NCBI GenBank assembly: GCA_945787325.1
Contig: CALZHP010000003.1
Coordinates: 6,070 to 70,069 of the forward strand
Length of the DNA stretch: 64,000 bases
Reading direction: 5' to 3'
From: an uncultured Desulfobulbaceae bacterium
GTDB lineage: Bacteria; Desulfobacterota; Desulfobulbia; Desulfobulbales; BM004
Shown here: positions 12,076-52,088 of the stretch, in pieces
Layout of the letters: each line of letters opens with the position of its first letter
Position numbering within the stretch: position 1 is the first letter of the stretch
The notes under the pieces: generated by a model
Databases searched by the model: none
Told to the model about the DNA's origin: nothing
What the model saw: the letters and a program-made list of their open reading frames with translations, nothing else
Program-made: the position numbers and the translations under genes

Positions 12076-12837
12076 TTAGTAAGATTCATTTCTATTTTTT
12101 AAAGCCTTTTTTATTTTCACTTTGAGCTTCATGAGTGCTTGGCTGTGAAGCTGTGAGACACGCCCTTCAGACACTTCCAGTATCCCAGCTATCTCTTTCT
12201 GATTGAGCTCTTCGTAGTAGTATAATGAAATGACCAACCGTTCTTTTTCGGAAAGTTTTCTGAGATGAGCGGCAATATCCTTAGTCAGTTCTTTTGATTC
12301 AATCCTTTCTGTAGGGGCTTTACCGTTTTCGTCCATCAGACTTTCCAAGAAATCACGGCCGTTTCTTGACCTATCGAGTGTTTCATGCAGGCTGACACAT
12401 CCCAGGTGACAGACTTGTCCCATCAACTTATGATAGTCTTCGAGATTCATATCCATAGCAGCAGCCATTTCTTCCTCCTCTGGAGAACGCCCCAGGGTTT
12501 TTTCCAGCCAGTCCATTGTTTTTGTCAGCCTGGAATGTTTTTCCCTTAAAGACCTTGAGAACCAGTCCATTTTTCGTACTTCATCAAAAATTGCTCCTCG
12601 TATACGATGCTCTGCAAAGGTTTTGAAAAGTATACCCTTGGATTCATCAAAACGGCTTGCAGCATCCAGCAATCCCATCATGGCAGCGCTTGCCATGTCG
12701 TCTCGTGTAAGAAAAGAAGGAACTTGAGGAACCATCCTTTCAACAATGCACTCAATCATCGGCATGTGACTCTTTATGAGAGCGTTTCTGTCATCTTCCT
12801 GATTTGTGTAGGGATTGTATTGTCTGTTCATCTTCAA
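12076..12837 (-). CDS. fliA: Flagellar sigma factor sigma-28 (FliA/SigD)
   Basis: It has sigma-70 family regions 2-4 (…DDMASAAMMGLLDAASRFDESKGILFKTFAEHRIRGAIFDEVRK…; …LNQKEIAGILEVSEGRVSQLHSQALMKLK). It follows flhG with a 4-bp overlap. Confidence 0.9.
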   Translation of the reverse strand: MKMNRQYNPYTNQEDDRNALIKSHMPMIECIVERMVPQVPSFLTRDDMASAAMMGLLDAASRFDESKGILFKTFAEHRIRGAIFDEVRKMDWFSRSLREKHSRLTKTMDWLEKTLGRSPEEEEMAAAMDMNLEDYHKLMGQVCHLGCVSLHETLDRSRNGRDFLESLMDENGKAPTERIESKELTKDIAAHLRKLSEKERLVISLYYYEELNQKEIAGILEVSEGRVSQLHSQALMKLKVKIKKALKNRNESY

Positions 12838-37582: not shown

Positions 37583-38084
37583 AGAATTTCCCTTCAAAAA
37601 TTTGTTTCGACTGGAAAACAGCAAAATGTGTTCCATTCTGACCTGCTATTTTCTTTATTCTAATGATTACAGATATATAGGTTTTTTGCAGATTGAATCT
37701 GTGTATGGATTTGCTCGTTAGGTTATTAAAGGAGCTATGAAGGGTCATTTTTTTGACAATTAATTCGATGAACTTGAAACATTCACTTGGGCCAGGGAAA
37801 AGAGACAGAACGAGATTCCAGAAATACACAAAGCAGATTAATGAGTTGATTACTTCTCAATGGTCATATTTTATAAATGTTACTTTAATAATATCGGGGA
37901 GATATGTTCACGAATGTCGACTGAGTGATTGTTGCCTTGATGTCATAAATACGAAGCCGAAACTATTAATGTAATGTAATGAAATGAACTTAATGAAGAT
38001 GTTACTCATTAACGGCATAAAAATTGTATAAGTGCTCTTGTGGTGTAACAATTAGAATGTATAGTGTTGAGTGGATTTTTTCTG

Positions 38085-38112
38085 TAAAGATCAGTATTCC
38101 TTTGGCCGATAT
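38085..38112 (+). promoter_or_regulatory. Sigma-28-type promoter for the che operon
   Basis: TAAA-gatcagtattcctttg-GCCGATAT with 16-nt spacing, 38 nt upstream of the cheA ATG (SD GAGG). Confidence 0.6.
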
Positions 38113-38150
38113 ATAAAAATGATTCTGGAACAAAATCCATCGAGGTAGAT

Positions 38151-40721
38151 ATGAGCAAAGATATTTCTTCAGAAGACATTGAAATAATTCAAGACTTTAT
38201 CCAAGAAAGTCATGACATGCTTGATCAATTGGAACCAACGATTATTGAACTTGGTGAGAGTTGTCAAAGTGTGAACTGCTGGGAAATCCTTAAGTGTGAA
38301 AGTGATGACTGCCACCGACAAGGAAAAGAAATAGATATTCCCTGCTGGCTGCACACCGGTTATGTGGGAAACGGTCTTGGTATATGTACCCACGGCAGTT
38401 CTGAGGCCGAATGTCTGTCTTGCCAGGTCTTTGTAATGACAAACGGAGATACTGAAACAATGAACGCCATATTCCGTTTGTTTCATTCAATGAAAGGGAG
38501 TGCCGGGTTCCTTGAGTTCGACAATATTTCTCGCAGCGCGCATGCGGCTGAAAACCTGCTGGATTTGATCCGTTCCGGCAACATTCAAATGGTGCCAGAA
38601 CATGTTGATCTTCTCTGCAAAGCATGTGACTTTGCCAATGAAGCTCTCGACTACGTAGAGGAACATTTTAACGACGAAGGTATGGCTGAAAAAGCAGAAG
38701 AAATTACTTCCCTTCTTAGAGATGCTATTGAAGATGCTCAAAACAGGGCAAAATTTATTCAGGAAGATACTGTTCAACAAGGCAAGAAAAACGATACCCA
38801 TAGCTCTGATGAAAAAGCATCTGCTTCTGAAGAGTCTGAGCCAGATCAGCAGGATCTGATTGGTCCGGAAATGATAGAGACATTCGTGCTTGATGCTGAA
38901 GATTTACTCAGAAGGGTAGAGCTGAATCTTTTAAAATTAATTGAACAGCCGAGCGATGAGATCATTTTAGCAGATCTTTTCAGAGAGATGCACACTTTTA
39001 AAGGGAATTGCGGATTCCTAAACCTTGGAGACTTTGAGAGATTAAGCCACAAGGTAGAAAGTGTACTTGGGGAATATAAGGAAGGAGATGTCCTAACAGA
39101 TAGTGATTCCACTCAACTTCTCATCAATATTGTAGATACAATGCAATCTGGTGTTGCCGATTTTTCTTCTGATGGCGATGGTACAATAGATCAGTTGGAA
39201 ATGCATCTCAAGTCGTTGGACGACCTTCTTCAAAAAATAAGCAATGCCCCCCCTCCAATACCAGATGATGCACCACGCCTGGGTGAATTGCTCGTAGAAA
39301 AAGGAATTATTAATTTTGAAGATATCGAAGAGGCACTGGAAGAACAGCAGAAACCTCTTGGAGATATCTTGATTGATATGGGGAAGGTTACTCCCGAGCT
39401 GATAACAACTACTCTAAAAGAACAACATAAAATTATTTCGCAGGATGCAGATAAAAAAGGGAAACCGAAGCCAAGATCTTTACCTGTAAAACGCCAAGAC
39501 ATAAGAGTTGATCTTGAAAAGCTCGACAACCTAATAAATCTTATCGGCGAGATGGTTATCGCCGAAAACATGTTAGTTCACAACCCCGATCTGGAAGGAA
39601 TGGAGTTGGAGAACTTCAATAAGGCCGCCCAACAGATGGGTAAGCTTGTCCGTGAGCTGCAGGAGATGGCCATGATAATCAGGATGATTCCTGTGTCGGG
39701 TCTATTCAGGCGAATGATTCGTCTGGTTCACGATCTGTCTACAAAGTCTGGGAAAAAGGTAGATCTGCAGCTTGCAGGTGAAGAAACAGAGATAGATAAA
39801 ACTGTCATAGAAACAATCACGGATCCCCTTGTCCATTTGTTGCGTAATTCTTTGGACCACGGTCTAGAACCTCCGGAAGAAAGAAACAAGGCGGGAAAAC
39901 CTGAAATAGGTGTACTTATCTTGTCGGCAAGACATGAAGAAGGCGAGGTCTGGATTACCCTGGAAGATGACGGCAGGGGACTTAACCGTGAAAAGATTAT
40001 CGCAAAAGCAATAAAGAACGGATTATTAGAAGAAGAATCTCCAGATTTGAGCGACAAGGAGGTTTATAATCTTATTTTTCAGCCGGGATTTTCAACTGCT
40101 GAAGTGATAACAAATGTATCTGGCCGTGGTGTGGGGATGGATGTTGTAAAGCAGAATCTTAACAAAATAAGAGGTAAGGTTGAGGTTCAGAGTAAACCCG
40201 GACGCGGCACTAAAATAACCCTTCGTATTCCCCTTACCCTGGCTATTATCGACGGAATGCTCGTTCGCGTAGGGTTATCTAAGTGTATTCTTCCCATCCT
40301 GAATATCCGGGAGGCTTTTTGTCCAAAAAGCAGTTCGATAACAATTACCCCAGATGGTGAAGAGATTGTTCGTGTCCGGGAAAACTTTTTTCCTGTCATA
40401 AGACTTCATGAAATTCTAGGTAAAGAACCGGACTGTATGGAGCTTGAGAAAGGAATTCTGATTGTTCTTGAGTATCAGGACAATAGCGCCTGCCTGTTCG
40501 TGGATGAAATAATGGGGCAGCAGCAGACGGTTATTAAGGGGTTGTCAGATTATATTGGCAGCATTCCAGTTATTTCAGGTTGTACTATCCTCGGCAACGG
40601 GCAAGTCTGTCTCATTCTTGACACTGGTAACCTGGTTGAACTGAAAGAAGGAAGTGAGCATGCCGCTGCACTGCAGGAACTGGCCCAACAACAAAGTGCG
40701 GCCGAACAGGCTGCTAATTAA
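38151..40721 (+). CDS. cheA: Chemotaxis histidine kinase CheA, non-canonical: Hpt(with Cys-rich insert)-Hpt-MshEN-like-P3-P4-P5
   Basis: It carries two Hpt phospho-His boxes, FRLFHSMKGSAGF (H112) and FREMHTFKGNCGF (H281). The dimerisation segment is DIRVDLEKLDNLINLIGEMVI. The HATPase region has the N box HLLRNSLDHG, G1 DDGRG and G2 GRGVGMD. The C-terminus is CheW-like. Confidence 0.93.
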   Translation: MSKDISSEDIEIIQDFIQESHDMLDQLEPTIIELGESCQSVNCWEILKCESDDCHRQGKEIDIPCWLHTGYVGNGLGICTHGSSEAECLSCQVFVMTNGDTETMNAIFRLFHSMKGSAGFLEFDNISRSAHAAENLLDLIRSGNIQMVPEHVDLLCKACDFANEALDYVEEHFNDEGMAEKAEEITSLLRDAIEDAQNRAKFIQEDTVQQGKKNDTHSSDEKASASEESEPDQQDLIGPEMIETFVLDAEDLLRRVELNLLKLIEQPSDEIILADLFREMHTFKGNCGFLNLGDFERLSHKVESVLGEYKEGDVLTDSDSTQLLINIVDTMQSGVADFSSDGDGTIDQLEMHLKSLDDLLQKISNAPPPIPDDAPRLGELLVEKGIINFEDIEEALEEQQKPLGDILIDMGKVTPELITTTLKEQHKIISQDADKKGKPKPRSLPVKRQDIRVDLEKLDNLINLIGEMVIAENMLVHNPDLEGMELENFNKAAQQMGKLVRELQEMAMIIRMIPVSGLFRRMIRLVHDLSTKSGKKVDLQLAGEETEIDKTVIETITDPLVHLLRNSLDHGLEPPEERNKAGKPEIGVLILSARHEEGEVWITLEDDGRGLNREKIIAKAIKNGLLEEESPDLSDKEVYNLIFQPGFSTAEVITNVSGRGVGMDVVKQNLNKIRGKVEVQSKPGRGTKITLRIPLTLAIIDGMLVRVGLSKCILPILNIREAFCPKSSSITITPDGEEIVRVRENFFPVIRLHEILGKEPDCMELEKGILIVLEYQDNSACLFVDEIMGQQQTVIKGLSDYIGSIPVISGCTILGNGQVCLILDTGNLVELKEGSEHAAALQELAQQQSAAEQAAN

Positions 40722-40915
40722 CGGGAAATGACCAATTAGAAATCAATTGAAGCAGGCTTAAGTCAATCAGTTTGGGGAAGTACTTAATTTAAAATCAATG
40801 GAATAACTGATAGACAGCTGTAGCCGAGAATTCAGGGGGGGAGGACCCCCAAATGCATTATTGTGGTCGTTCAGAAAAACTGCAATAAATGCGTAAAATT
40901 CAAGGGAGGATTTCG

Positions 40916-41710
40916 ATGAGTAAAAGAGTTATGAAATTGTTTTTTGTTACTATGAGTTTGGTCCTGTTTTTTTCCTATTCCGCAAATGCTGCAGAGGTCC
41001 TGTTGTGGGGGTCAACTACCTGTCAGAAGCGTTTTCTGGAGCCTGGCAAGGAAGCGCTCAATAATGCTACAGGAGTTAACATCAAGGTTTTTGGGGTTGG
41101 TACAGGTAAGGGAATGCTTGCCCTTTTTGAAGGAAAGACCAATGTGGCAATTTCTTCGAATACCTTGGATGAGAGTGTTAAATCCGCCCAGAAGGTTCGA
41201 AAAAAAACAGGCAAGGAGCCTGTGGAAGTGCCAGAAGGACTTCAGTATCATGAGATAACCAAAGACGTCATTGTCCCTATAGTACACAAAGAAAACACTG
41301 TCAATAAACTGAGCTGGGAACAGCTGGCAGATCTGAACACCGGTAAAATCACCAACTGGAAAGATGTCGGTGGCCCAGATATGTCTGTTCAGGTTGTAAC
41401 AAGCCATGCCGGCAGTTCAACAAAAGCAGTATTCCGGAAGATGGTCATGAAGAAGGCAGAGTATGATGCCGGTGCAATCGAGGTAAAAAGCACCAGGTTG
41501 GAGATAAACAAAGTATCCAAAAATAAAGGTGGTGTAGGTGCTGTCAGTAGCGGTTTTCATACGCTGAATCCCGGCAAAACAAAAGTAGTTGAAACAAACA
41601 CGATTCAGAGACCTCTCGGTCTTGTAACAATTGGTGATCCGGCTCCTGATGTACAGAAAATAATTGATTTTTTTCGTTCAGCAGAAGGCAAGAAACATAT
41701 ACTAGATTAA
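40916..41710 (+). CDS. Periplasmic substrate-binding protein, PstS/PBP-like-2 family
   Basis: Signal peptide ...LVLFFSYSANA|AE, then ...LLWGSTTCQKRFLEPGKEAL...IKVFGVGTGKGMLALFEGKTNVAISSNTL..., the pattern of phosphate-type type-2 binding proteins. There is a strong SD (GGGAGGA) before the ATG at 40916. Confidence 0.8.
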   Translation: MSKRVMKLFFVTMSLVLFFSYSANAAEVLLWGSTTCQKRFLEPGKEALNNATGVNIKVFGVGTGKGMLALFEGKTNVAISSNTLDESVKSAQKVRKKTGKEPVEVPEGLQYHEITKDVIVPIVHKENTVNKLSWEQLADLNTGKITNWKDVGGPDMSVQVVTSHAGSSTKAVFRKMVMKKAEYDAGAIEVKSTRLEINKVSKNKGGVGAVSSGFHTLNPGKTKVVETNTIQRPLGLVTIGDPAPDVQKIIDFFRSAEGKKHILD

Positions 41711-41769
41711 GGCCGAAATTGCGGAAAATGTAGTAATCTTTAGTGTTTTTGATAGTTACAATTATGATA

Positions 41770-41813
41770 GTTGATGCCTGCTTCGATACGATCCGTTTGA
41801 AGCAGGCATCAAC
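41770..41813 (+). other. Perfect 15-bp inverted repeat (stem-loop) between the binding-protein gene and mcp
   Basis: GTTGATGCCTGCTTC-(14 nt)-GAAGCAGGCATCAAC. No T-run follows, so this may be an attenuator, an mRNA stability element or a protein-binding palindrome. Confidence 0.5.
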
Positions 41814-41911
41814 AAGCGATTCAAAATATATCGAACGAGTGTGGCAGTTTACTCAGAAAGTCATCGGCAAAAAAACTTGGGATAGTTGGAAAACCTGATA
41901 GCGAGGAAGGC

Positions 41912-44356
41912 ATGAAGAATAGTTGGAAGCTAAACATTCAGGAGAAATTGATCGGTGGTTTCGGCATTGTTGCGTTTGTATGCGCTACTGTGGGCTATGT
42001 CGGGTGGTATGGGGCTTCTAAATTAGAAGAAAATATCGTTGTAACCGGTGAAGTCAGTGTACCTTCTTTGCAGGCAGTAATGAACCTTAAAGAAGCGCAG
42101 CTTTCTATTAAGGCATCTGGGCGAACTCTTCTTAACCCATCTCTTTCAGTTGAAAATAAGGCTAAAGAATACGCGGATATTGATGCCGCTTTCTCAAGGG
42201 CAAACAGCGCGCTTGAAATGTACGAAGCCCTTGACATCGATGGTAGTGAGAAAGCTTTGTGGCAAAATTTTCTGGCCAGCTGGAGTGAATGGAAAATGAG
42301 TATTGAAAATTTTATTACTCTCAGCAAGAAGAATGATGCATTAAATATCCACAACCCCCAAAAACTGATCAGCGATATAGAGAGAAATTTTGGTGAATAC
42401 AGAACCTGGGCCGCTGAAAGTGTAAAAGCTGTCCTCGAAAACAGTGAATTCTCAGGTAACCTGGACCCGGATAAATCACCCTTCGGGATATGGTTGTCAT
42501 CACTACAGGTCGATAACCAGGTTGTTCAGGAAGCTGTCATCAAACTAAAAAATCAGTTGATCAGTGTATATTCTTCGGTTGGTTCAATTGCAGATTTTTT
42601 ATCAATTGAAGAATATGAACTGGCCAAGGAAGTATATGTTTCAGAGGTGCTGCCAAGTATAGAAAGTATTCAGATCTATGTAGATAACCTCATGGCACCT
42701 ATTGAAGAATCCCTGGATCTATATGAGGAGATGGCTGTTTATGAGCGTGAAACCTTCTCAATATCACTGGCAAAAACAGAAAAACTCTTGAATCAGGTTG
42801 TGATGAAGACCAACGCAAAAGTCGCGGAAGATGTGAATGAAGGCCGTGCATTTGCTGGTAATATTACAATGGCTCAAATTGTTGTGGCAATGCTTGGTGC
42901 AATAGCAGCTTTTGTGTTTGGTTTTTTTCTTGCCCGCCATATAATTATTCCCATTAAAAAGGCTATTGGTGTTATAAGCAAGCTTTCACAGGGTAATACA
43001 GATGTGACTATGCCGGTTGGCAAATTTTTTAATTGTTCTGAAGAGAAAAAATGCGGTCATGAGGATTGTCCAAGTTATGGCAAAGTTGACCCCTGCTGGG
43101 TAACAAGTGGTTCTTTTGCGGCAATAAAACATTGTCCTCGAGCGAAAAGCGGTGAAGATTGCCGCTCATGTAATTTGTATGGCAAGCGCACTGAACTTGA
43201 AGAGCTGGGTTCAATTATCATGGCATTATCAAATATTATAAAAGAACGGGAAAATCTGGCGCTTGCAATTGCCGAGGGTGATCTGAATAAAGAAGTGGAA
43301 GTTGCATCTGACAATGATACACTCGGCAAAGCTCTCAAATTGATGCAGGATAGTCTCAGCGATATTATCGGCAAGGTCCAAATGGCGGGAGAGCAAATAG
43401 CTAACGGTTCTACTCAGATTTCCGGTTCCAGCCAGTCTCTTTCTGAAGGAGCGACCAAGTCTGCTGCGTCGCTTGAAGAGATGACCACGTCCATGTCGCA
43501 AATGGGCACGCAAACCAAGCGAACCGCCAAGCACGCAATTGAGGCTAATGATCTTTCCGAACAATCCAAAAATGCTGCCGAGGATGGTAATCAGCGAATG
43601 GCCGACATGGTTGAAGCCATGAAACAGATAAGTGCATCCAGCCAGAGTATCTCAAAGATAATAAAAGTGATTGATGAGATCGCTTTTCAGACAAATCTAC
43701 TTGCTTTGAACGCGGCTGTGGAAGCTGCGCGAGCAGGGCGGCATGGCAAAGGTTTTGCAGTAGTGGCTGAAGAGGTAAGGAACCTTGCTGCGCGAAGTGC
43801 CAAAGCTGCGCGGGAAACAGCTGACTTAATAGAGGGGTCAGTAAAAAGAACTGATAATGGTGCTGAAATAGCAGGTAAAACTGAGGATGCCCTGTTGGAT
43901 ATAGTGGGCAAAACCTCAAAGGTGTCTGACATTGTTGCAGAAATAGCGTCATTGTCTAACCAGCAGGCCCAGGGGATAGATCAGGTAAATTTGGGTTTGG
44001 AGCAGGTGGATAAAGTTACCCATGAAAATACAACCACTGCTGAAGAAGGAGCAGCCGCCGCTGAAGAGTTGTCCTCCCAGGCAAATCACCTGTATAATAT
44101 GTTACGGCATTTCAAACTTAAGGAAAATTATCGGAATAAAATCAGGACTGAACAGCCACAGCAATTAGAACCTTTAGAGGAGGTTCGGAATAATGACCAT
44201 AATGAACAGCCGCAGCTGATTGAACCTGTAAAGAAGGCGGTTGAAACATGGGGTGTGAATAGCGAGGAACCTGAAGAAAGTAATGAGTTTAAAGATGAAC
44301 CCCGTTTTCAGGATGATTTTATAGCGTTGGATGATAACGAATTTGGTAAGTACTAA
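41912..44356 (+). CDS. Methyl-accepting chemotaxis protein with a Cys-rich module inserted in its HAMP domain
   Basis: It has TM1, a periplasmic region of about 290 aa, and TM2 ([24 protein letters not shown]). The split HAMP is followed by a signalling domain, ...[44 protein letters not shown]... The C-terminus is a long acidic tail. Confidence 0.93.
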
Positions 44357-44485
44357 TTATATAGCGGAAGTGAACAACATAATTTAATAATAATGCTACA
44401 TAAGTCAAAGGATCGTAAACCATGAATATAAAGTGATTGTAGACTTAATATTCGATTATGCAGGACATGTTTGAGAGGAGTAAAT

Positions 44486-45010
44486 ATGGTGCAATATACC
44501 AGGGACGAAATGTTGGATGATGATTTTTACGGTGAAGATGAAGATACCCAGAAGGGAAAATTTTTAACATTTCACATGGCGAATGAGGATTATGGAATAG
44601 AGATCAAACATGTTACTGAAATAATTGGAATTCAAAATGTTACGGAAGTGCCGGATATGCCGGACTATGTCCGTGGTGTTATCAATCTGCGCGGCAAAGT
44701 AATACCCATAATGGATGTGCGTACCAGGTTCAAACTTCCCCCCCGGGAATACGACGAGCGCACCTGCATCATTGTTGTCAACATTGATGATAAGTCAGTG
44801 GGACTTGTAGTAGACAAGGTGAATGAGGTCGCGGATATTCCCGATGACCAGATAGAACCGCCTCCCAGGACAAAAAGAGAGGGAGGAGGGTATATCCAGG
44901 GTATGGGTAAGATTGACGAGGAAGTCAAGATACTGCTGGACGTCACTAAGCTACTTTATGAGGATGAACTTGAAGAGCTTGATGCCGTGTCCCAGAATTC
45001 CTCTGAGTAG
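44486..45010 (+). CDS. cheW: Coupling protein CheW
   Basis: ...FLTFHMANEDYGIEIKHVTEIIGIQNVTEVPDMPDYVRGVINLRGKVIPIMDVR... Start at MVQYT, with SD GAGGAG. Confidence 0.9.
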   Translation: MVQYTRDEMLDDDFYGEDEDTQKGKFLTFHMANEDYGIEIKHVTEIIGIQNVTEVPDMPDYVRGVINLRGKVIPIMDVRTRFKLPPREYDERTCIIVVNIDDKSVGLVVDKVNEVADIPDDQIEPPPRTKREGGGYIQGMGKIDEEVKILLDVTKLLYEDELEELDAVSQNSSE

Positions 45011-45149
45011 TAAAAGCAGTAATATATGTTCGTAAAATTGATTATGACAACTTTATAGGTTTGTCATTTATTTCAACTCATATCAATGTTAGAATGTCAC
45101 TATTATTCACAAAGATTGCGGACACTTGTTGTCTGAAAAGCTGAACGGT

Positions 45150-45992
45150 ATGAATGGATATCTGCTTAGCATTTCAGACGAAGAATTCCAATTAATGCGC
45201 TCTTTGATCTATGAGCGTTTCGGTATCAATCTCACCGAACAAAAACGTTCGCTGTTGATCGGGCGTCTCCAGAAGATAATCAAAACATCTGGATTTCATT
45301 CTTTTCAACAGTATTACGAACACATAATTAATTCCCAGAACGAACAGGCCCTCAGTAATCTGATTGACCGTGTTTCAACCAATCATACTTATTTCTACAG
45401 AGAGAAAGACCATTTTGATTACTTTCTTCAAACCGCATTGCCTAATGTCGTATCAAGACTAGAAGCAAAAGGTTCCCGAGAATTGCGAGTGTGGTGCGCC
45501 GGATGCTCGTCAGGTGAAGAACCTTATATGATTCTCATGCTGATGCAGAAATACTTTGGTATGGATTATTTGAAATGGGATGCAGGAGTTTTAGCCACTG
45601 ATATCTCTTTGAGAGCACTGAATACTGCTAAGGCAGGGATTTATAATCAGGAAAAAATCGATATGATTCCTGAGGAGCTCGTAAGTAAACATTTTTATAA
45701 GAGTGGCAAAAGTGAGTGGGTCGTAAAAGATTCATTAAAGAAAGAGGCTACCTTCCGCCGATTTAATTTAATGAATAGTCATTTTCCTTTTAAGAAGCCA
45801 TTTCAAATAATTTTCTGCAGGAATGTGATGATTTATTTTGATCAGCCGACCCGGGACAATCTTGTGAAAAAATTTTATCAATTCACGGATCCGGGTGGAT
45901 ATTTTTTTATCGGCCACTCAGAATCTCTAGGCCGTAGCCATGATCACTACCAATATGTAAAACCGGCCGTTTATCAGAAGAGGTATAAGTAG
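45150..45992 (+). CDS. cheR: Chemoreceptor methyltransferase CheR
   Basis: ...FQLMRSLIYERFGINL... and the SAM-binding VWCAGCSSGEEPY ...IFCRNVMIYFD. The start is uncertain (ATG at 45150 or TTG at 45126). Confidence 0.9.
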   Translation: MNGYLLSISDEEFQLMRSLIYERFGINLTEQKRSLLIGRLQKIIKTSGFHSFQQYYEHIINSQNEQALSNLIDRVSTNHTYFYREKDHFDYFLQTALPNVVSRLEAKGSRELRVWCAGCSSGEEPYMILMLMQKYFGMDYLKWDAGVLATDISLRALNTAKAGIYNQEKIDMIPEELVSKHFYKSGKSEWVVKDSLKKEATFRRFNLMNSHFPFKKPFQIIFCRNVMIYFDQPTRDNLVKKFYQFTDPGGYFFIGHSESLGRSHDHYQYVKPAVYQKRYK

Positions 45993-47054
45993 ATGCTTAA
46001 AAAAATACGTGTTCTTGTTGTTGATGATTCTTTGCTTGTCAGGCAAGTACTTACCAAGGGACTTTCCGCTGATCCAGCTATAGAAGTTGTTGGAGCTGCT
46101 GAAGATCCATATGTTGCCAGGGATAAGATTGTGGAGCTGAAGCCCGATGTCCTGACCCTGGATGTGGAGATGCCCCGCATGAACGGTGTTGATTTCCTTC
46201 GCCGACTAATGGCCCAGCGGCCCATGCCGGTTGTTATGGTAAGTTCTCTTACACAGAAAGGACAAAAAGTTACACTTGATGCTCTGGAGGCGGGTGCAGT
46301 GGATTTCGTTTCCAAACCATCTGTATCCGGTATCAGTGGACTAAGTGGGATGCTGACAGAGTTGCGGGTTAAGGTAAAAACAGCAGTTACGGCAAATCTT
46401 CTTCAGCTCAAAGAGAAAAAAGAACGGGCTCCTCAAGAATCGGTTTCTAAGGACAATGTTAGAGCACTTGCAGAGCTGGCTGGAAAAGTAGTTGCGATAG
46501 GAGCATCGACCGGTGGAACTGAAGCTTTAAATACAATTTTATCGCAGTTTCCGGCAACTATGCCGGGTGTTGTTGTTGTTCAGCATATGCCACCAGGATT
46601 CACCAAGATGTTTGCAGAAAACTTGAATAATGCCTGTGCTATGAAAGTGAAGGAAGCGGAAACAGGTGACAGAATAATGTCTGGACGTATCCTCGTTGCA
46701 CCGGGAGGTGTGCAGACTAAGGTAGTAGAAAAAGGGGGTGTCCTGCAGGTCTCTTGCGGTTCTTCGGAAAAGGTAAGCGGTCATTGCCCTTCTGTAGATG
46801 TAATGATGCAATCAGTAGCAGAAAGCGTTGGGGCAGATGCTGTTGGAGTCATGCTGACTGGAATGGGTAATGATGGTACCAAAGGAATGCTTGCCATGAA
46901 AAATGCCGGAGCTAAAAATATGGCTCAGGATGAAGCATCTTCAGTTGTTTTCGGTATGCCTAAACAGGCTTATGAGGCTGGAGGTGCAAAAGCACTTGTC
47001 CCCCTTAATAGGATATCGGCTAAAATTATCAGTTTTCTCCTGGAGAAACGTTAG
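45993..47054 (+). CDS. cheB: Chemoreceptor methylesterase/response regulator CheB
   Basis: REC domain (VLVVDDS..., DVLTLDVEMPRMNG) plus an esterase domain (IGASTGG..., ...HMPPGFT..., ...GMGNDG). Confidence 0.94.
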   Translation: MLKKIRVLVVDDSLLVRQVLTKGLSADPAIEVVGAAEDPYVARDKIVELKPDVLTLDVEMPRMNGVDFLRRLMAQRPMPVVMVSSLTQKGQKVTLDALEAGAVDFVSKPSVSGISGLSGMLTELRVKVKTAVTANLLQLKEKKERAPQESVSKDNVRALAELAGKVVAIGASTGGTEALNTILSQFPATMPGVVVVQHMPPGFTKMFAENLNNACAMKVKEAETGDRIMSGRILVAPGGVQTKVVEKGGVLQVSCGSSEKVSGHCPSVDVMMQSVAESVGADAVGVMLTGMGNDGTKGMLAMKNAGAKNMAQDEASSVVFGMPKQAYEAGGAKALVPLNRISAKIISFLLEKR

Positions 47055-47539
47055 TGAGCGGAACCTTTCTAGGAATCGGCGATTATGCCGTCTCAAATGA
47101 GGCAGACTCCGTGTTGAAAACGTACCTTGGTTCTTGTGTTGCGGTTATCCTGCTTGATCCTATAACACGAACCGTTGGTATGGTGCACATAGCTCTGCCG
47201 GATTCAAGTCTAGATCCATCTAAGAAGGAATTATTACCTGGGTATTTTGCAGACTCAGGTATTGCTGTTCTTTTCAACAAGATGAAAGAGTACGGCTTCA
47301 GTGAAAAAAGCCATAAACTTATTGTAAAACTGGTGGGAGGGGCATCGGTAATGTCTCAATGTGATGTTTTTAACATTGGATTAAGAAATGTTGAGGCTGC
47401 AAAAAGTATACTGAAATCCATGGGTTTACATATATCATCAGAAGATGTTGGAGAGAAATACAGCAGATCTGTTGCCATTGAGGTGGATACAGGAAAGGTA
47501 ACTGTAAGCAGCCCAGGTCGCGGCCAGTGGGATATATGA
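47054..47539 (+). CDS. cheD: Chemoreceptor glutamine deamidase CheD
   Basis: ...LKTYLGSCVAVILLDP...GMVHIALP... with catalytic Cys/His contexts. It overlaps the cheB stop. Confidence 0.88.
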   Translation: MSGTFLGIGDYAVSNEADSVLKTYLGSCVAVILLDPITRTVGMVHIALPDSSLDPSKKELLPGYFADSGIAVLFNKMKEYGFSEKSHKLIVKLVGGASVMSQCDVFNIGLRNVEAAKSILKSMGLHISSEDVGEKYSRSVAIEVDTGKVTVSSPGRGQWDI

Positions 47540-47549
47540 GGTAGAAAGT

Positions 47550-48416
47550 ATGAACAAGAAACTTGTTAATAAAGAAATCATGATTGCTATCAAAAGCGCA
47601 CCGCTTCTTTCTCCAAGCGTTTATGATATTATAAGAAAAATAGCAGAACCTGACCACAGCCTGGCTGATGTGGTCAAGATTGTGAAGCATGATTCCGCAC
47701 TTACAGCAAGATTATTGAGGGTAGTTAACTCAGCGGCTTTTGCGACGTTAGATCCGGTTAATTCTGTTGACCGGGCTATATCATTACTTGGAGAACGTAT
47801 GGTTGTCGGTTTGGCTATATCAGAAAGTACAGGTAATTTATTCCATAAACCTCTAGAGGGCTACGATGGCAAAAAAGGTGACCTTTGGAGTCATGATCTT
47901 ATTGTTGCTTATGCAACAAGAAAAATAGCGGGACTAGCTAAGATTAATATCGATCCCGAACTGGCATTTACCGGTGGGTTATTACATGATATCGGCAAGG
48001 CGATTATTTCCGATTTTCTAAAAGGAACTGCGGAGGAGTTACTGCAGAGTATTGATAAAGGTCATGTCGATGATTATGCCTCGGCCGAAAAAAATTTCCT
48101 GGGAGTCAACCACCAGGCGGTGGGTTACGAACTTGCCATGAACTGGAATTTACCTGAATCAATCCAACAGATGATCCTCCATCACCACAGCCCTGCCGAA
48201 TCGGATGATGAGTTCAAACCTTATGTTTATGCAGTTCATTTAGGAGATATTATATCAATGATGTCCGGATTTGGTACCGGCACAGATATTATGCAATATA
48301 ACCTGGACCAGGGATATGAAGAGTATTTTAATCTTAAATTTGAATCGATAGCATCTGTAATGCTGGAAATTAAGGATAAATGTAAAAGAGTAATTGGGGT
48401 GGAGGACTGCATGTAG
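47550..48416 (+). CDS. HDOD domain protein
   Basis: ...ADVVKIVKHDSALTARLLRVVNSAAF... and ...GGLLHDIGKAIIS... are HDOD hallmarks. Confidence 0.8.
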   Translation: MNKKLVNKEIMIAIKSAPLLSPSVYDIIRKIAEPDHSLADVVKIVKHDSALTARLLRVVNSAAFATLDPVNSVDRAISLLGERMVVGLAISESTGNLFHKPLEGYDGKKGDLWSHDLIVAYATRKIAGLAKINIDPELAFTGGLLHDIGKAIISDFLKGTAEELLQSIDKGHVDDYASAEKNFLGVNHQAVGYELAMNWNLPESIQQMILHHHSPAESDDEFKPYVYAVHLGDIISMMSGFGTGTDIMQYNLDQGYEEYFNLKFESIASVMLEIKDKCKRVIGVEDCM

Positions 48417-48496
48417 ATCCATTTAACGTTCTTAATATGATCGGTATCTGCATTTATTTAGCTGTAATTATACGTCAACCATAGGCGGAGGTAAGC

Positions 48497-48868
48497 ATGG
48501 GTAAGAAGGTATTAATTGTTGATGATTCAAGCACTATGCGTAAGATCGTAACCAGGTGCCTGAGACAGGCGGGTCTGGAGTTCGAAGAGGTACTGGAAGC
48601 AGGAGACGGCCAGGAAGCCCTCCAGGTTCTTCAGGGTGCAAAAGTGGATCTTATTTTAAGCGACATAAATATGCCCAATATGGATGGTTTGGCATTCCTC
48701 AAGGAAAAAGCAGGTAATGATGCAATCAAAGACATTCCTGTGGTTATGATATCAACTGAAAGTGGGGACGATATTGTAACTGAAGCCAAAAAATTGGGTG
48801 CTGCAGGCAGTATAAAGAAACCATTTACGCCAGATCAGGTCAACGAGACAATAATGCCGTTAATATAG
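48497..48868 (+). CDS. cheY: Response regulator CheY
   Basis: KVLIVDDSSTMRKI..., DLILSDINMPNMDG, ...VVMISTE..., ...IKKPF. All canonical receiver residues are present. Confidence 0.93.
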   Translation: MGKKVLIVDDSSTMRKIVTRCLRQAGLEFEEVLEAGDGQEALQVLQGAKVDLILSDINMPNMDGLAFLKEKAGNDAIKDIPVVMISTESGDDIVTEAKKLGAAGSIKKPFTPDQVNETIMPLI

Positions 48869-48887
48869 ACTTGATAAGGTAGTATAC

Positions 48888-49346
48888 ATGGTTGAACCAC
48901 AAGAGTTGATTAGCTTCACCCAAGAAATATTCTCTACGATGATCATGATGGATGTAAGGCCGGGTGAACCTATTACAGGAAAATATGAGTTTTTTCAATC
49001 TTCCATTACCGGTATGGTTGGTCTGGCAGGGAAATATAAAGGAATGATCGCTATTCATGTTCCCGACAATGTAGCAAAAACGATAACAGGAAACTTTCTT
49101 GGCTGTGGTGTTGAAGAGATTAATGAAGATGTCCATGATGCAATTGGAGAGCTAGCGAATATGTTAGGAGGTAGCATAAAAGCCTGCTTAGCTGAATCCA
49201 GTAAAGATATCGAGCTTTCATTGCCTACTACTGTTTTAGGGATGCAATATTCCCTGCAGAGTCAGGATGATGTTAAGGTTATGACAATTCCTTTCAGCGT
49301 TGAAGGTGGTGAGTTTCTGGTTGAAATACAGTTGCAAGAAAAATAA
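48888..49346 (+). CDS. cheX: CheX-type CheY-P phosphatase (CheC/CheX/FliY family)
   Basis: A single active-site motif, D-x3-E-x2-N (DAIGELANMLGG), followed by a Pro about 22 residues later. CheX-like size (152 aa). Confidence 0.8.
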   Translation: MVEPQELISFTQEIFSTMIMMDVRPGEPITGKYEFFQSSITGMVGLAGKYKGMIAIHVPDNVAKTITGNFLGCGVEEINEDVHDAIGELANMLGGSIKACLAESSKDIELSLPTTVLGMQYSLQSQDDVKVMTIPFSVEGGEFLVEIQLQEK

Positions 49347-49446
49347 TTACTGATTGATATGATGTTTAATAATGTCAAATATACAAATCGAGTTCAATAA
49401 CTTTATAAGTAGCGACATTATAATCATGGCTTCATAATAGGAGACA

Positions 49447-50586
49447 ATGAAAGCAAGGGAGACAATTGATAACACACTGGATGCGGCGAAATTGCATCTA
49501 CAGAAAGAAGTTGGTGATCTTCTTGGACACAAAGTCAGTCTATCAGATCCCAGGGGCCGCTTCATTTCCAAGGTGAACTTTTTTTCAAGATTCGAAAGTA
49601 AAAACGTTCTTGTCAAATTTGAGGTAAGTGGTGAACTGGAAGGGATTATATATCTTAATTTTTCTATGAAAGATGCTATTACACTTGGCGGTACGCTCAT
49701 AATGCTTCCCGATGCTGAACTGGAGGCACACATCTCTAAAGGTGAATTTGGTGAGGATGAAGCAGATGCATTTGGTGAAATAACAAATATCATTTGCGGT
49801 CTCTACACGAAAAGTTTTACTGAGCAATTTCCCCAAAAAATCCATTTTAAAAAAACGGACCTTGTAGTTTTCCAACCATCTGAAATAGATATTGATTCTC
49901 CCGACCCTATTCCGGACGTAGGTTACTATTTGGTATCTTTTCCAATGGTTCTCGGGGAAAAACAACTTGGTGAATTTGATACCCTATTTCCTGCAGAATT
50001 GTTCGGAATGGAGTTTGTTGAAGAACAAGGCGTCGCAGAGAAAGTTCAGGGTGAAGAGGGTGAAAAGCAGGCGGAACCAGCGGCTTCAGATGATGGGATA
50101 ACAGAGTCCCCGCCGACTGATGTTGGAGCATCAGAAACTGAACTGGGGGCTCCTGCAGCCCAGGAAGATGCAGCAGTGACTCCTGCTCAAGACGTAAGCG
50201 CTTCTGCTGCAATAAATCAGGAAAGCACCCGAGTGATCATACTTGCAGATGAAGTCCAGGACGCTCAACCCTTTATGAGTACACTTCAGGAATGCGGGTT
50301 CGAGCCGAATATTATGAATTTTAATGATAATATAAAGGATGTTGTCGCCCAGGGAGTACGCGGAATTTTTATTATCTTGAACGAAGTGAACGAGCAGGGT
50401 ATGGCGGCTCTAATAAAAATAAGCTCAGCCTGTAGTGGTGGTTATCCACTTGTAATAGCAGGGCCGGAATGGACGCGAAAAACTGTTATGCAGGCTGTTA
50501 AATATGGTGCCTGTGACATAGTTATGACCCCGGCGTCACCTGATGAAATAAAAGGAAAAATTTGCCAGCACTTCGGAAGCGTCTAA
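49447..50586 (+). CDS. CheC-like domain - acidic linker - degenerate receiver (pseudo-REC) fusion protein
   Basis: A D-x3-E-x2-N motif is present (DAFGEITNIICG, codons 107-114). A Glu/Ala/Pro-rich linker of about 70 aa follows. The C-terminal 120 aa have a REC fold pattern (VIILADE..., GIFIILNEVN, PLVIAGP, DIVMTP), but Asn, Ala/Gly and Thr replace the phospho-Asp, Thr/Ser and Lys. Confidence 0.65.
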   Translation: MKARETIDNTLDAAKLHLQKEVGDLLGHKVSLSDPRGRFISKVNFFSRFESKNVLVKFEVSGELEGIIYLNFSMKDAITLGGTLIMLPDAELEAHISKGEFGEDEADAFGEITNIICGLYTKSFTEQFPQKIHFKKTDLVVFQPSEIDIDSPDPIPDVGYYLVSFPMVLGEKQLGEFDTLFPAELFGMEFVEEQGVAEKVQGEEGEKQAEPAASDDGITESPPTDVGASETELGAPAAQEDAAVTPAQDVSASAAINQESTRVIILADEVQDAQPFMSTLQECGFEPNIMNFNDNIKDVVAQGVRGIFIILNEVNEQGMAALIKISSACSGGYPLVIAGPEWTRKTVMQAVKYGACDIVMTPASPDEIKGKICQHFGSV

Positions 50587-50612: not shown

Positions 50613-52088
50613 TTACGAGTCCGGAATTATATTTTTCTTTTTAATTTTTTCCAGAAGAGTAGTCCTTTTCAGATTCAGTAATTTTGCAGCTTCCTTTTTA
50701 TTGCCTTTCGAAACCTCCAGTGCCTGAAGGATCAGCTTCCTTTCATAATTATCAACCAGGGTGTTGAAGTCTATTCCATTTTCATCCAGTTCTAATTCCT
50801 GATCATGCTGAATTTCAGATGATACAGGATCAGGTTCGGTAGTGATGTTATCAATATGTGCCGTGTATTTAGGAGGCAGGTCAGTCAGTGCGACTTTTTT
50901 CCCACCGTGCAGGATAGACATATGTTGTACCAGGTTTTCAAGTTCCCGCACATTGCCTCGCCAAGGATACTCCTGCATTTGTTCGATGGTTTCAGACTCA
51001 AATCCCTGTAAGGGCTTTTTTTTGTTGCGGTTAAAAATCTGTACGAACTTGTTAATCAGAATCGGAATATCAGGTTTACGTTCACGGAGAGGAGGGATGT
51101 TAATAGGAACGACACTCAGACGGTAGAATAAATCTTCTCGAAAATTTCCTGAAGCGACCTTATCCTCAAGGTCACAGTGAGTGGCGGCGATTATTCGAAC
51201 ATTGGCCGGAATGGGTTTAAGTCCTCCCACCGGTTCAAATTCCTTTTCCTGGAGCACTCTCAGCAGTTTGGCCTGCAGGGAAGGTTTCATATCACCAATT
51301 TCATCAAGAAAAAGTGTTCCCCCGTCAGCATACTGTATACGACCCATTTTTGACTTAGTTGCTCCTGTGAAAGCGCCTTTGACATACCCAAAAAGTTCAC
51401 TTTCAAGAAGCTCGTCAGGAATTGCCGTACAGTTAACAGGCACGAGGTTTTTTCCTTTCCGAGGGCTGTGGGCATGAATTGCCTGTGCTACCAGTTCTTT
51501 TCCAGTCCCGCTTTCGCCATGTATGAGGACTGTACTGATGTCATCATCTGCAACTTTACTAATGAGGTAGAATAGATTCTGCATTACAGAGGAGTCACCG
51601 ATAATTCCATGGAATCCCTCCGACTTTCTGCTCTTAACACTCGCCTTCTTCTCTTGAGACATGCTGGCCGAATAGTTTAGCCCACGGCTGACAGCAATGA
51701 CTGCTTCACCATAGTCATACGGAGAATTAATATAGAAAAACGTGCCGAGACGCAGCACCTCGGTGATTATCTCCCTGTTTCCGGAAGGTATAGCGGCAAT
51801 TGTAATAATTTCAGGGTTTGATGCATGTGTTTCTTTTAATAGAGCTATCCCTTCTCTTTTAGGAAGGAAAAGGTCTGTTAGAAGAAGAGAGATGTTCCCA
51901 TCGTTTAACAACTCCTGAGCATCTTCCGTTGACCCGGCTTCAAGTACTACGCATCCAATTTCTTTGCGCAGCATGACGGCAAGGCTTTCCCTTGCTTTAG
52001 TGTCTGGATCTACAAGAAGAATAGTGCAGTAGGCTTGATTGTTATTCTGATCTTTATTTTCAGTATTTTTTCTCATTGAAGGTGTCAT
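50613..52088 (-). CDS. Sigma-54-dependent response regulator (NtrC/FlrC/FleR-type enhancer-binding protein)
   Basis: REC (ILLVDPD..., LLLTDLFLP), AAA+ (GESGTGKE, GAFTGA, ...RVIAAT...) and a C-terminal Fis-type HTH (...GNKKEAAKLLNLKRTTLLEKIKK). No adjacent histidine kinase. Confidence 0.92.
   Translation of the reverse strand: MTPSMRKNTENKDQNNNQAYCTILLVDPDTKARESLAVMLRKEIGCVVLEAGSTEDAQELLNDGNISLLLTDLFLPKREGIALLKETHASNPEIITIAAIPSGNREIITEVLRLGTFFYINSPYDYGEAVIAVSRGLNYSASMSQEKKASVKSRKSEGFHGIIGDSSVMQNLFYLISKVADDDISTVLIHGESGTGKELVAQAIHAHSPRKGKNLVPVNCTAIPDELLESELFGYVKGAFTGATKSKMGRIQYADGGTLFLDEIGDMKPSLQAKLLRVLQEKEFEPVGGLKPIPANVRIIAATHCDLEDKVASGNFREDLFYRLSVVPINIPPLRERKPDIPILINKFVQIFNRNKKKPLQGFESETIEQMQEYPWRGNVRELENLVQHMSILHGGKKVALTDLPPKYTAHIDNITTEPDPVSSEIQHDQELELDENGIDFNTLVDNYERKLILQALEVSKGNKKEAAKLLNLKRTTLLEKIKKKNIIPDS

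Follow-up and report, generated by a model that had tools for sequence, protein, structure and literature searches.

Can a chemotaxis kinase sense the state of the cytoplasm by itself, or does it only pass on what its receptors report? The question is raised by an operon of an uncultured Desulfobulbaceae bacterium (GenBank assembly GCA_945787325.1, contig CALZHP010000003.1) at positions 38,085 to 50,586 of the 64,000-nucleotide stretch analysed here, which we call the window. Both its histidine kinase CheA and its methyl-accepting chemotaxis protein (MCP) carry an inserted module with seven cysteines. A reading of the letters made without database searches (the sequence-only reading) had described a single sigma-28-driven operon of eleven chemotaxis genes with several unusual domains. 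Pfam and NCBIfam searches identified all eleven as co-directional open reading frames (ORFs) on the + strand at 38151-50586, in the order cheA, PstS-like periplasmic binding protein (PBP), mcp, cheW, cheR, cheB, cheD, HDOD, cheY, cheX and a gene for a CheX/CheC-like protein with a pseudo-receiver; the starts of the PBP gene and of cheW were corrected.

The undescribed core of this locus is a two-CW-type domain spliced into the P1 domain of CheA and into HAMP connectors. Roughly half of the locus's apparent strangeness is family-wide or already catalogued. The sequence-only reading knew of no characterised chemotaxis system with this combination; the type of operon, however, goes back to a description of 2008 (PMC2577667), and the module is related to the curated family NF045718. 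In our best reading, the pathway serves flagellar chemotaxis and has optional plug-in cytoplasmic inputs (metal or Fe-S, and cyclic di-GMP, c-di-GMP) on its kinase, the cofactor and the signal being presumed. We put the probability of this explanation as a whole, with its core parts, extra inputs and proposed mechanism, at about 0.55.

A cysteine module in the kinase and in the receptor

The module occurs at two places, the first of them ahead of a phospho-acceptor histidine:

38259..38450, + strand: CheA cysteine module, residues 37-100, in the loop between helix A and helix B of P1a (AlphaFold2 model, alignments)
38484..38486, + strand: codon of His112, the P1a phospho-acceptor, in FHSMKGSAG (invariant in 31 and in 58 aligned sequences)
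43031..43183, + strand: MCP cysteine module, residues 374-424, seven cysteines, in the HAMP connector (profile match, joint alignment)

According to the sequence-only reading, kinase and receptor contain the same module. A profile of 99 other CheA modules does match the MCP of the window (residues 374-423, 26.7 bits, all seven cysteines aligned), and in a joint alignment of 40 CheA modules with the MCP module the seven cysteines are invariant, together with a proline, a tryptophan and a glycine. The word "same", however, overstates the likeness: at 31% identity the two belong to separate subfamilies, and the MCP copy has one CW motif, not two. That they are recent copies of each other is ruled out on these grounds. 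Among CheA modules, C43, W44, C49, C54, C65, W66, C79, C88 and C91 are invariant. The cysteine pattern is kept in 105 of the 120 best CheA homologues, which shows that the inserts are no strain-specific drift; low-complexity drift is likewise ruled out by a pattern invariant in more than 100 homologues.

Pfam matches neither module. From its pattern and profile matches, we assign the module to the two-CW domain superfamily (NCBIfam NF045718), of which it is a divergent member. The likeness consists in the seven-cysteine pattern with CW motifs (C-W-x4-C-x4-C ... C-W ... C ... C-x2-C) and in the retrieval, by the profile of the window modules, of 91 canonical members at E<=1e-3, those tested passing NF045718; the fifth-cysteine position and the loop lengths differ. 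The profile gives 182 matches at E<=1e-3 among 1.84 billion representative proteins, and the best 149 of these 182 were divided into subgroups:

canonical two-CW group, 91 matches: CWE..C....CP.Y..CW...GT.C...C..C
MCP-type group, 42 matches: NCS..K.CG...CPSYGK..CWV.SGS...CPRA..GEDCR.C
CheA-type group, 5 matches: pattern like that of the window CheA
other matches, 11: varied pattern

Seven is the commonest number of cysteines in each subgroup with more than a handful of members. Among 84 host proteins, Pfam finds MCPsignal in 29, HAMP in 26, HisKA in 23 and GGDEF in 16, and also PAS, GAF and HD_5. Several signalling proteins carry tandem two-CW copies (P0125, with GGDEF, and P0127, P0133, P0138, P0176, P0195 and P0226), and, listed separately from these, P0157, P0174, P0234 and P0266 are stand-alone two-CW proteins of 60-90 residues.

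Several observations weigh against this assignment and what we build on it. The CheA module scores 20 bits on NF045718 (E=6.5e-4), below the cutoff of 35, where canonical two-CW members score 36-78 bits; neither the MCP module of the window nor its MCP-type relatives P0136 and P0141 match that model. When the PDB was searched with the module profile or a canonical two-CW protein, nothing significant was returned, the best matches being a RING finger (E=0.16) and an Fe-S subunit (E=2). Modelled alone with AlphaFold2, the module has a predicted local distance difference test score (pLDDT) of 52, too low for a fold search, and our literature search found no paper on the two-CW domain or on Fe-S or cysteine-rich HAMP chemoreceptors. 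Separately, a word-indexed search that used the MCP module as its sole query yielded no candidates.

The insertion site in CheA was located on an AlphaFold2 model of residues 1-205 (31 aligned sequences, pLDDT 91.5, predicted template modelling score 0.87). Helix A spans residues 7-37 and helix B, which bears His112, residues 101-120; the stretch between them (38-100) is mostly coil with four short helices (pLDDT 78-92), and the module ends about 12 residues before His112. The P1a helices superpose on solved CheA P1 domains with template modelling scores of 0.83-0.88 (normalised to the target); as the targets are about 128 residues long and the alignments run to 184-198 columns, an insert without a match can be accommodated. 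Because CheA homologues without the cysteines have a short P1 loop, reading ...EPTIIELGNSGGDEKTINAVFRLFHSMKG..., the module represents about 57 residues cleanly inserted into the A-B loop. In the MCP it lies between AS1 (residues 347-369) and AS2 (residues 428-445), the same layout as in the consensus of 84 module-bearing proteins, IxxP..G - module - DExxxLxxxxNxM, where it also separates the HAMP segments AS1 and AS2.

For comparison of operons we used 80 genome loci with related cheA genes; loci are numbered with L. Related MCPs of these orthologous operons have a contiguous HAMP where the MCPs of the window, L022, L047 and L077 have a 54-residue insert. The module is present in the MCP only at L047, L077 and L085 and in both proteins in the window and at L022, and loci with a module in CheA only exist too. 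When the kinase cores (P3-P5) are arranged in a neighbour-joining tree, presence of the module in CheA requires at least four gain or loss changes, and the core of the window CheA is closest to module-less CheAs. To judge from this distribution, the cysteine module behaves as an optional plug-in that has been repeatedly gained or lost. In a PBP-partnered MCP at L086 (4904-7057), it is the extreme C-terminus (residues 639-714) and not the HAMP connector that holds a two-CW-like sequence, ...CPAYPDHGTTCARKAGTLCGGKVQGSFAKKIINCKQCDFY...; this sequence is degenerate, with another residue in place of the second tryptophan and a score of only 9.9 bits on the module profile.

The most likely function of the module is to bind a metal centre, given its seven cysteines, its occurrence in a strict anaerobe and its recurrence at the input positions of signalling proteins. 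As cofactor we favour Fe-S, at slightly less than even odds; zinc is a somewhat weaker candidate, and anything other than these two seems rather improbable. A purely structural zinc insertion, or a docking surface, would carry no redox or metal information. In the docking variant, the module could be a handle for CheY, CheB or another protein of the operon and offset the missing P2 domain of CheA. Seven cysteines could fit structural zinc equally well; the last pair forms a CxxC with the spacing typical of zinc knuckles, the modelled module is mostly coil with short helices in a CheA without P2, and the RING zinc finger, although not significant, is among the weak PDB similarities. We nevertheless consider such a role unlikely, because MCPs, histidine kinases and GGDEF proteins all carry domains of this superfamily at their input position and some members stand alone in proteins of 60-90 residues, as is typical of sensors, because the module sits in a HAMP connector, a signal-conversion element, and because its free gain and loss without loss of the pathway indicates that it is not needed for basic docking.

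If the module is an input domain, as we prefer to read it, its state could bias both HAMP output and the availability of His112, since both insertion sites join helices of a signal-carrying bundle. The coupling of a cytoplasmic cofactor-type module to the HAMP or signalling domain of an MCP has parallels in Aer (PAS-FAD beside HAMP) and in CZB receptors such as TlpD; unlike in these, the module of the window lies inside the HAMP connector and also inside the P1 domain of a kinase. The furthest-reaching version of this reading is that two-CW is a new, widespread cytoplasmic redox sensor of the Fe-S or metal-thiolate type, which would re-pack its flanking helices, gate the phospho-histidine helix of CheA and, with c-di-GMP, allow receptor-independent redox or metal sensing. 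We regard this version as doubtful and put it forward tentatively.

Phosphotransfer domains and an MshE-type motif in CheA

The kinase carries a second candidate input:

38151..40721, + strand: cheA, 856 residues, with P1a and inserted module, P1b, MshE-type motif, P3, P4 and P5, no P2 (Pfam)
38991..38993, + strand: codon of His281, the P1b phospho-acceptor, in MHTFKGNCG (second Pfam Hpt stretch)
39276..39425, + strand: MshE-type c-di-GMP motif, residues 376-425, RLGELLVEKGIINFEDIEEALEEQ-QK-PLGDILIDMGKVTPELITTTLKEQ (NCBIfam NF053729)

Pfam recognises two Hpt domains, H-kinase_dim (449-509), HATPase_c (558-696) and CheW (702-830), so that, with the P1a model, P1 (an Hpt with its HxxKG histidine), P3, P4 and P5 of a CheA are all present; NCBIfam CheA models match as well, all below their equivalog cutoffs. 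The tandem Hpt domains noticed in the sequence-only reading are real, with His112 in HSMKG and His281 in HTFKG. They are not an unusual feature, however, but a family trait, since two such histidine motifs occur in 117 of the 120 CheA homologues.

A similar correction applies to the MshEN-like motif said to stand in place of P2. Neither Pfam nor NCBIfam finds a P2, and between the end of P1b (about residue 345) and the start of P3 (residue 449) there are only the 50-residue motif and linkers, with no room for one; the motif thus sits between P1b and the dimerisation domain, in the usual place of P2. It matches NF053729 ("cyclic di-GMP-binding domain, MshE-related") over profile positions 1-53 of 53 with 54.7 bits, against a cutoff of 38. 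The feature is family-wide, the model being matched by 38 of 58 CheA homologues at E<=1e-6, and fusions of this kind were listed in 2016: the bioinformatic survey of Wang et al. includes an MshEN_N domain inside the CheA of Aeromonas veronii and another fused to CheX (PMC5013675). That CheA (HPT-P2-MshEN_N-dimerisation-HATPase-CheW; PMC5013675) likewise has two 24-residue motifs of the LGxxLV type between the phosphotransfer region and the dimerisation domain; the CheA of the window differs from it in lacking P2, in having a second Hpt before the motif, in a 2-residue spacer and in a second motif that starts with proline. The precomputed Pfam lists of the CheA homologues P0029, P0034, P0035, P0040 and P0066 include PF27543.1, and the sole extra local Pfam match of P0029 is a weak DUF4388 over the MshE-like segment (residues 311-344).

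Does the motif bind c-di-GMP? The MshEN consensus consists of two 24-residue motifs, RLGxxLVxxGILxxxxLxxxLxxQ, with a 5-residue spacer (PMC5013675). The first half, RLGELLVEKGIINFEDIEEALEEQ, fits the published motif except for one conservative L-to-I change; its R, L, G, G and Q and its hydrophobic positions are retained. The second half is the weaker: it begins with proline for arginine and has lysine at a hydrophobic position, and the spacer, at 2 residues, is 3 short of the published 5. Binding of c-di-GMP has been lost in degenerate MshEN domains of the XpsE type, in which several key residues are substituted, and the CheA of L085 retains one half-motif only. Our literature search found no CheA shown by experiment to bind c-di-GMP. 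These departures, which all weigh against binding, give substance to the view that the segment is a degenerate MshEN_N, a mere helical-hairpin linker, and that c-di-GMP has no part in the pathway. We consider that view somewhat the less probable one, because the score is above a curated cutoff, the positions of the first motif are kept, the relaxed published motif permits proline at the first position (PMC5013675) and the segment is retained in two thirds of the homologues. On balance, and judging from motif conservation, we lean slightly towards the MshE-type motif being a c-di-GMP-binding site.

An operon of flagellar type with an inserted cassette

The other genes and elements of the operon are:

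38085..38112, + strand: sigma-28-like site TAAAG-N15-GCCGATAT, about 40 nucleotides upstream of the cheA ATG (pattern search)
40916..41710, + strand: PstS-like PBP, 264 residues (Pfam PBP_like_2, 87 bits)
41773..41810, + strand: perfect 12-bp inverted repeat GATGCCTGCTTC ... GAAGCAGGCATC with a 14-nucleotide loop, no T-tract after it, between the PBP gene and mcp
41912..44356, + strand: mcp, 814 residues (Pfam 4HB_MCP_1, HAMP, MCPsignal)
44321..44353, + strand: extreme C-terminus of the MCP, 11 residues, pentapeptide-like tether (IALDDxEFGKY motif)
44486..45010, + strand: cheW, ATG behind GAGAGGAG (Pfam CheW, 149 bits)
45126..45992, + strand: cheR (Pfam CheR, CheR_N)
45993..47054, + strand: cheB, receiver and methylesterase (Pfam)
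47054..47539, + strand: cheD (Pfam CheD, 94 bits)
47550..48416, + strand: HDOD/HD-domain protein (Pfam HDOD, 163 bits; HD, 47 bits)
48497..48868, + strand: cheY, with the canonical residues DD, D56, T and K (Pfam; residues from the translation)
48888..49346, + strand: cheX, active-site motif DAIGELAN at residues 84-91 (Pfam CheX, 84 bits)
49447..50586, + strand: terminal CheX/CheC-like protein with pseudo-receiver, 379 residues (Pfam CheX below cutoff, hhalign)

For cheW, the longest ORF starts at 44471, but a start at 44486 is probable. That of the PBP gene starts at 40889, but the ATG at 40916 is preceded by a ribosome-binding site, GGGAGGA, and gives 264 residues as in the homologues; we place the start of the gene there.

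As for the promoter, the pattern TAAAG-N15-GCCGA occurs exactly twice in the 64-kb window, upstream of cheA and upstream of the flagellin gene (2729-2753, - strand), and these two sites define a local sigma-28 consensus; none of 100 shuffled sequences contained two or more matches. Since this layout is common to cheA and the flagellin gene and rare in shuffles, sigma-28 control of cheA is supported, as the sequence-only reading had it. A search with the strict consensus TAAA-N14-16-GCCGATAA gave no match, the cheA site differing by one base in the -10 element, and generic scans for promoters and terminators gave site numbers no higher than expected by chance. Two points count against a single sigma-28-driven transcript: the site is not kept upstream of most orthologous cheA genes, and the gaps of 115-200 bp that flank the PBP-mcp pair leave room for internal promoters. 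Because of these gaps, that the eleven genes form one transcript is something we infer. A search with Rfam recognised no RNA family, riboswitches included, either in the window as a whole or in the intergenic gaps of the operon.

The surroundings of the operon are flagellar. On the opposite strand, positions 1-35105 hold a complete flagellar cluster with flagellin, FlhA, FliM and rod proteins, in which a FliA-sized sigma-70-family factor (252 residues, 12076-12837) occupies the usual fliA position. The operon diverges from this cluster, and the flgB/flgC/TPR-cheA arrangement is kept in 37 of the 80 loci. The gene divergent from cheA encodes an 830-residue TPR protein (35144-37636, - strand), which adjoins the operon in those 37 loci. 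At the other end, a gene for a REC-sigma54-activator-HTH regulator (50613-52088, - strand) is convergent with the operon, an arrangement kept in 39 of the 80.

The 80 loci come from Desulfuromonadales, Desulfobulbales and some metagenome-assembled genomes (MAGs) of Nitrospinota, and most of the longer ones keep the order cheA-(W)-R-B-D-HDOD-Y-(Y)-X-(X)-CheX-like. The mcp gene, present in the window, is absent from most of them. In most orthologous operons cheY is present as two adjacent genes, and cheX is often doubled too, against a single cheY and a single cheX in the window. The HDOD gene keeps its position and is the counterpart of the "HD domain" gene in the group-alpha clusters of Geobacter. 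Those clusters of Geobacteraceae comprise cheA, cheW, cheR and cheB with an HD-domain gene, no mcp and a sigma-28 site, which was reported for cluster 1 of G. sulfurreducens, and they were left uncharacterised (PMC2577667; Tran, Krushkal, Antommattei, Lovley and Weis 2008). The operon of the window, likened to them by description, shares the four che genes, the stand-alone HD-domain gene and a sigma-28-like site; it differs in its PBP-mcp cassette, and the family defined here reaches beyond Geobacteraceae. The Cys module, the tandem Hpt domains and the MshE motif are not mentioned in PMC2577667.

Gene content and order lead us to predict a flagellar chemotaxis operon under sigma-28 control, of the Desulfuromonadales/Geobacter "group alpha" type, that has received a PBP-MCP cassette between cheA and cheW. 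Several che clusters of Geobacter are believed to steer non-flagellar outputs instead (matrix production, development or gene expression), the function of group alpha is unassigned, and neither the HDOD protein nor the pseudo-receiver has a known chemotaxis role, all of which would suit such an output here. It is nonetheless improbable for this operon, in view of the conserved synteny with flagellar genes, the sigma-28-like promoter in common with the flagellin gene, an output protein that is a single-domain canonical CheY with CheX-type phosphatases alongside, and an MCP of the 36H type with a tether-like C-terminus.

The embedded binding protein of the sequence-only reading proved to be present, as part of a conserved cassette dropped into the operon. 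The gene is absent from all 80 che loci, and in five of five genomic contexts of PBP homologues (57-75% identity) a gene for an MCP of the four-helix-bundle (4HB) type follows; on these two grounds we regard the PBP-MCP pair as a conserved cassette inserted between cheA and cheW. Among the five contexts, one adjoins a flagellar cluster and one a cheA. The partner MCPs have 36-57% identity in the periplasmic domain, and one only carries a Cys module. The inverted repeat at 41773-41810 and a G5/C5 hairpin 3' of cheA, around 40833-40849, both lie at borders of the inserted cassette.

The PBP scores 107.6 bits on the PstS model TIGR02136, well short of the cutoff of 206.6, which counts against phosphate-type PstS membership; its closest solved relatives are phosphate-binding proteins (E about 1e-13), and in an alignment to 4q8r the phosphate-loop SGT reads SST. 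On this evidence it is classed as a member of the broader PBP_like_2 family. That it is a phosphate-uptake gene caught in the operon is ruled out: no transporter genes accompany it, and it invariably comes with an MCP. At L081 (628-5682, a Desulfobulbaceae MAG), the PBP-MCP pair lies directly downstream of an operon for a TAT-signal molybdopterin oxidoreductase (Molybdopterin, Fer4_11, Nitrate_red_del-type chaperone), a context which may hint at a respiratory oxyanion as the PBP ligand.

Indirect sensing through periplasmic binding proteins is familiar from Tar-MBP and Trg-RBP/GBP of E. coli and, for phosphate, from CtpL-PstS of P. aeruginosa. As in these systems, a binding protein, here of PstS fold, is encoded beside a four-helix-bundle MCP and the pair is conserved; unlike in them, the PBP is below the PstS cutoff, no transporter genes adjoin it and its interaction with the MCP is suggested by gene adjacency.

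The MCP consists of a periplasmic 4HB domain, the second transmembrane segment (TM2), the split HAMP with its module, a second HAMP, a 36H-type signalling domain and a C-terminal tail. Its cytoplasmic domain (query 2-269) aligns without gaps to residues 256-523 of E. coli Tsr, whereas the 44H receptor TM1143 needs 28 extra residues, hence the 36H class. The tail ends in IALDDxEFGKY, preceded by a variable low-complexity linker, and the motif closes 13 of the 18 compared MCPs if one FGRY and one INLDD variant are included (window, L001, L011, L047, L049, L051, L053, L056, L058, L060, L065, L077 and L085). It fits the xF/YxxF/Y CheR-tether motif, which was assigned to 34H receptors (PMC2577667), whereas the MCP of the window is a 36H one.

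Signal termination and the proposed pathway

The terminal protein has a CheX/CheC-like part (residues 1 to about 200), a variable acidic/Ala-rich linker and a pseudo-receiver (about 261-379). Its description in the sequence-only reading, a CheC-like protein fused to a receiver that cannot be phosphorylated, is supported by profile matches on both sides, for the receiver part tentatively. Against the profile of the operon's CheX family, the N-terminal domain reaches an hhalign probability of 91.7%, with DAFGEITN (residues 107-114) on the CheX site, at a Pfam CheX score of 23.6 against a cutoff of 27; the motif, kept in orthologues, aligns to the CheC site of Thermotoga maritima (structures 2f9z and 1xkr, ExxN; E118 and N121 of CheC), so that both motif (D/S-x3-E-x2-N) and profile place it in the CheC/CheX/FliY family. 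A proline follows at +15, as opposed to +22 in the operon's CheX (from the translation). The C-terminal domain matches a CheY profile (hhalign 85.5%, E=5.8e-6, 113 columns) and has no Pfam match even at E<=10; it has N312 at the phospho-Asp position, G/P at that of Thr and T at that of Lys, and one of the two N-terminal acidic residues is lost.

The fusion is, however, a family feature, which takes away the unusualness once claimed for it. Orthologues in 38 loci comprise 14 single-domain ORFs (one a fragment) and 24 double-domain ones. The double-domain proteins (L002, L004, L014, L021, L024-L029 and others) are about 600 residues long and have two tandem CheX/CheC-like domains ahead of the pseudo-receiver, where the protein of the window has a single one. 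Among the single-domain proteins, 13 are full-length, and eight of these keep an aspartate at the phospho-site and lack the N-terminal acidic pair. The set resembles the CheC/CheX/FliY phosphatases and the CheC-CheD pair of Bacillus subtilis and T. maritima in combining CheD, CheX and a third protein with DxxxExxN; it differs in that this third protein is fused to a receiver-like domain without the Asp, Thr and Lys of the phosphorylation site.

CheA, CheW and the MCP are the sensing unit of the pathway, CheY its output, and CheR, CheB and CheD its adaptation enzymes; CheX and the CheX-like/pseudo-receiver protein are candidates, by profile and motif, for the enzymes of signal termination. In the mechanism we propose, the PstS-like protein, loaded with an oxyanion, would presumably dock on the periplasmic domain of the MCP. 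The state of the module, loaded or empty, oxidised or reduced, would alter the packing of the flanking helices, which in the MCP would bias HAMP output and in CheA would control whether His112 can reach P4, or CheY and CheB. By binding c-di-GMP, as it probably does, the MshE-type motif would change the geometry of P1 relative to P3 and P4. The second, unmodified Hpt may offer a constitutive route of phosphotransfer. In this way, the kinase would add the redox or metal state and the second-messenger state of the cytoplasm to the input from its receptors. The proposal of the sequence-only reading that an intracellular signal enters at the kinase itself is thus plausible, in that the module superfamily occurs in MCPs, histidine kinases and GGDEF proteins and the c-di-GMP motif scores above its threshold; the cofactor, the ligand and the effect on the kinase are presumed.

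In textbook chemotaxis, CheA is a passive relay under receptor control. If our reading is true, the kinase of this operon would integrate cytoplasmic state on its own, through a sensor-type domain about 12 residues before the phospho-histidine helix and through a second-messenger motif that replaces P2. The natural variants of CheA and MCP with and without the module are ready-made controls, and cultured carriers exist in Trichloromonas acetexigens, Geoalkalibacter subterraneus, G. halelectricus, Geothermobacter species and Desulfuromonas versatilis. Solving the cofactor of the module in one tractable protein would allow annotation of an input domain in at least 182 sequence clusters.

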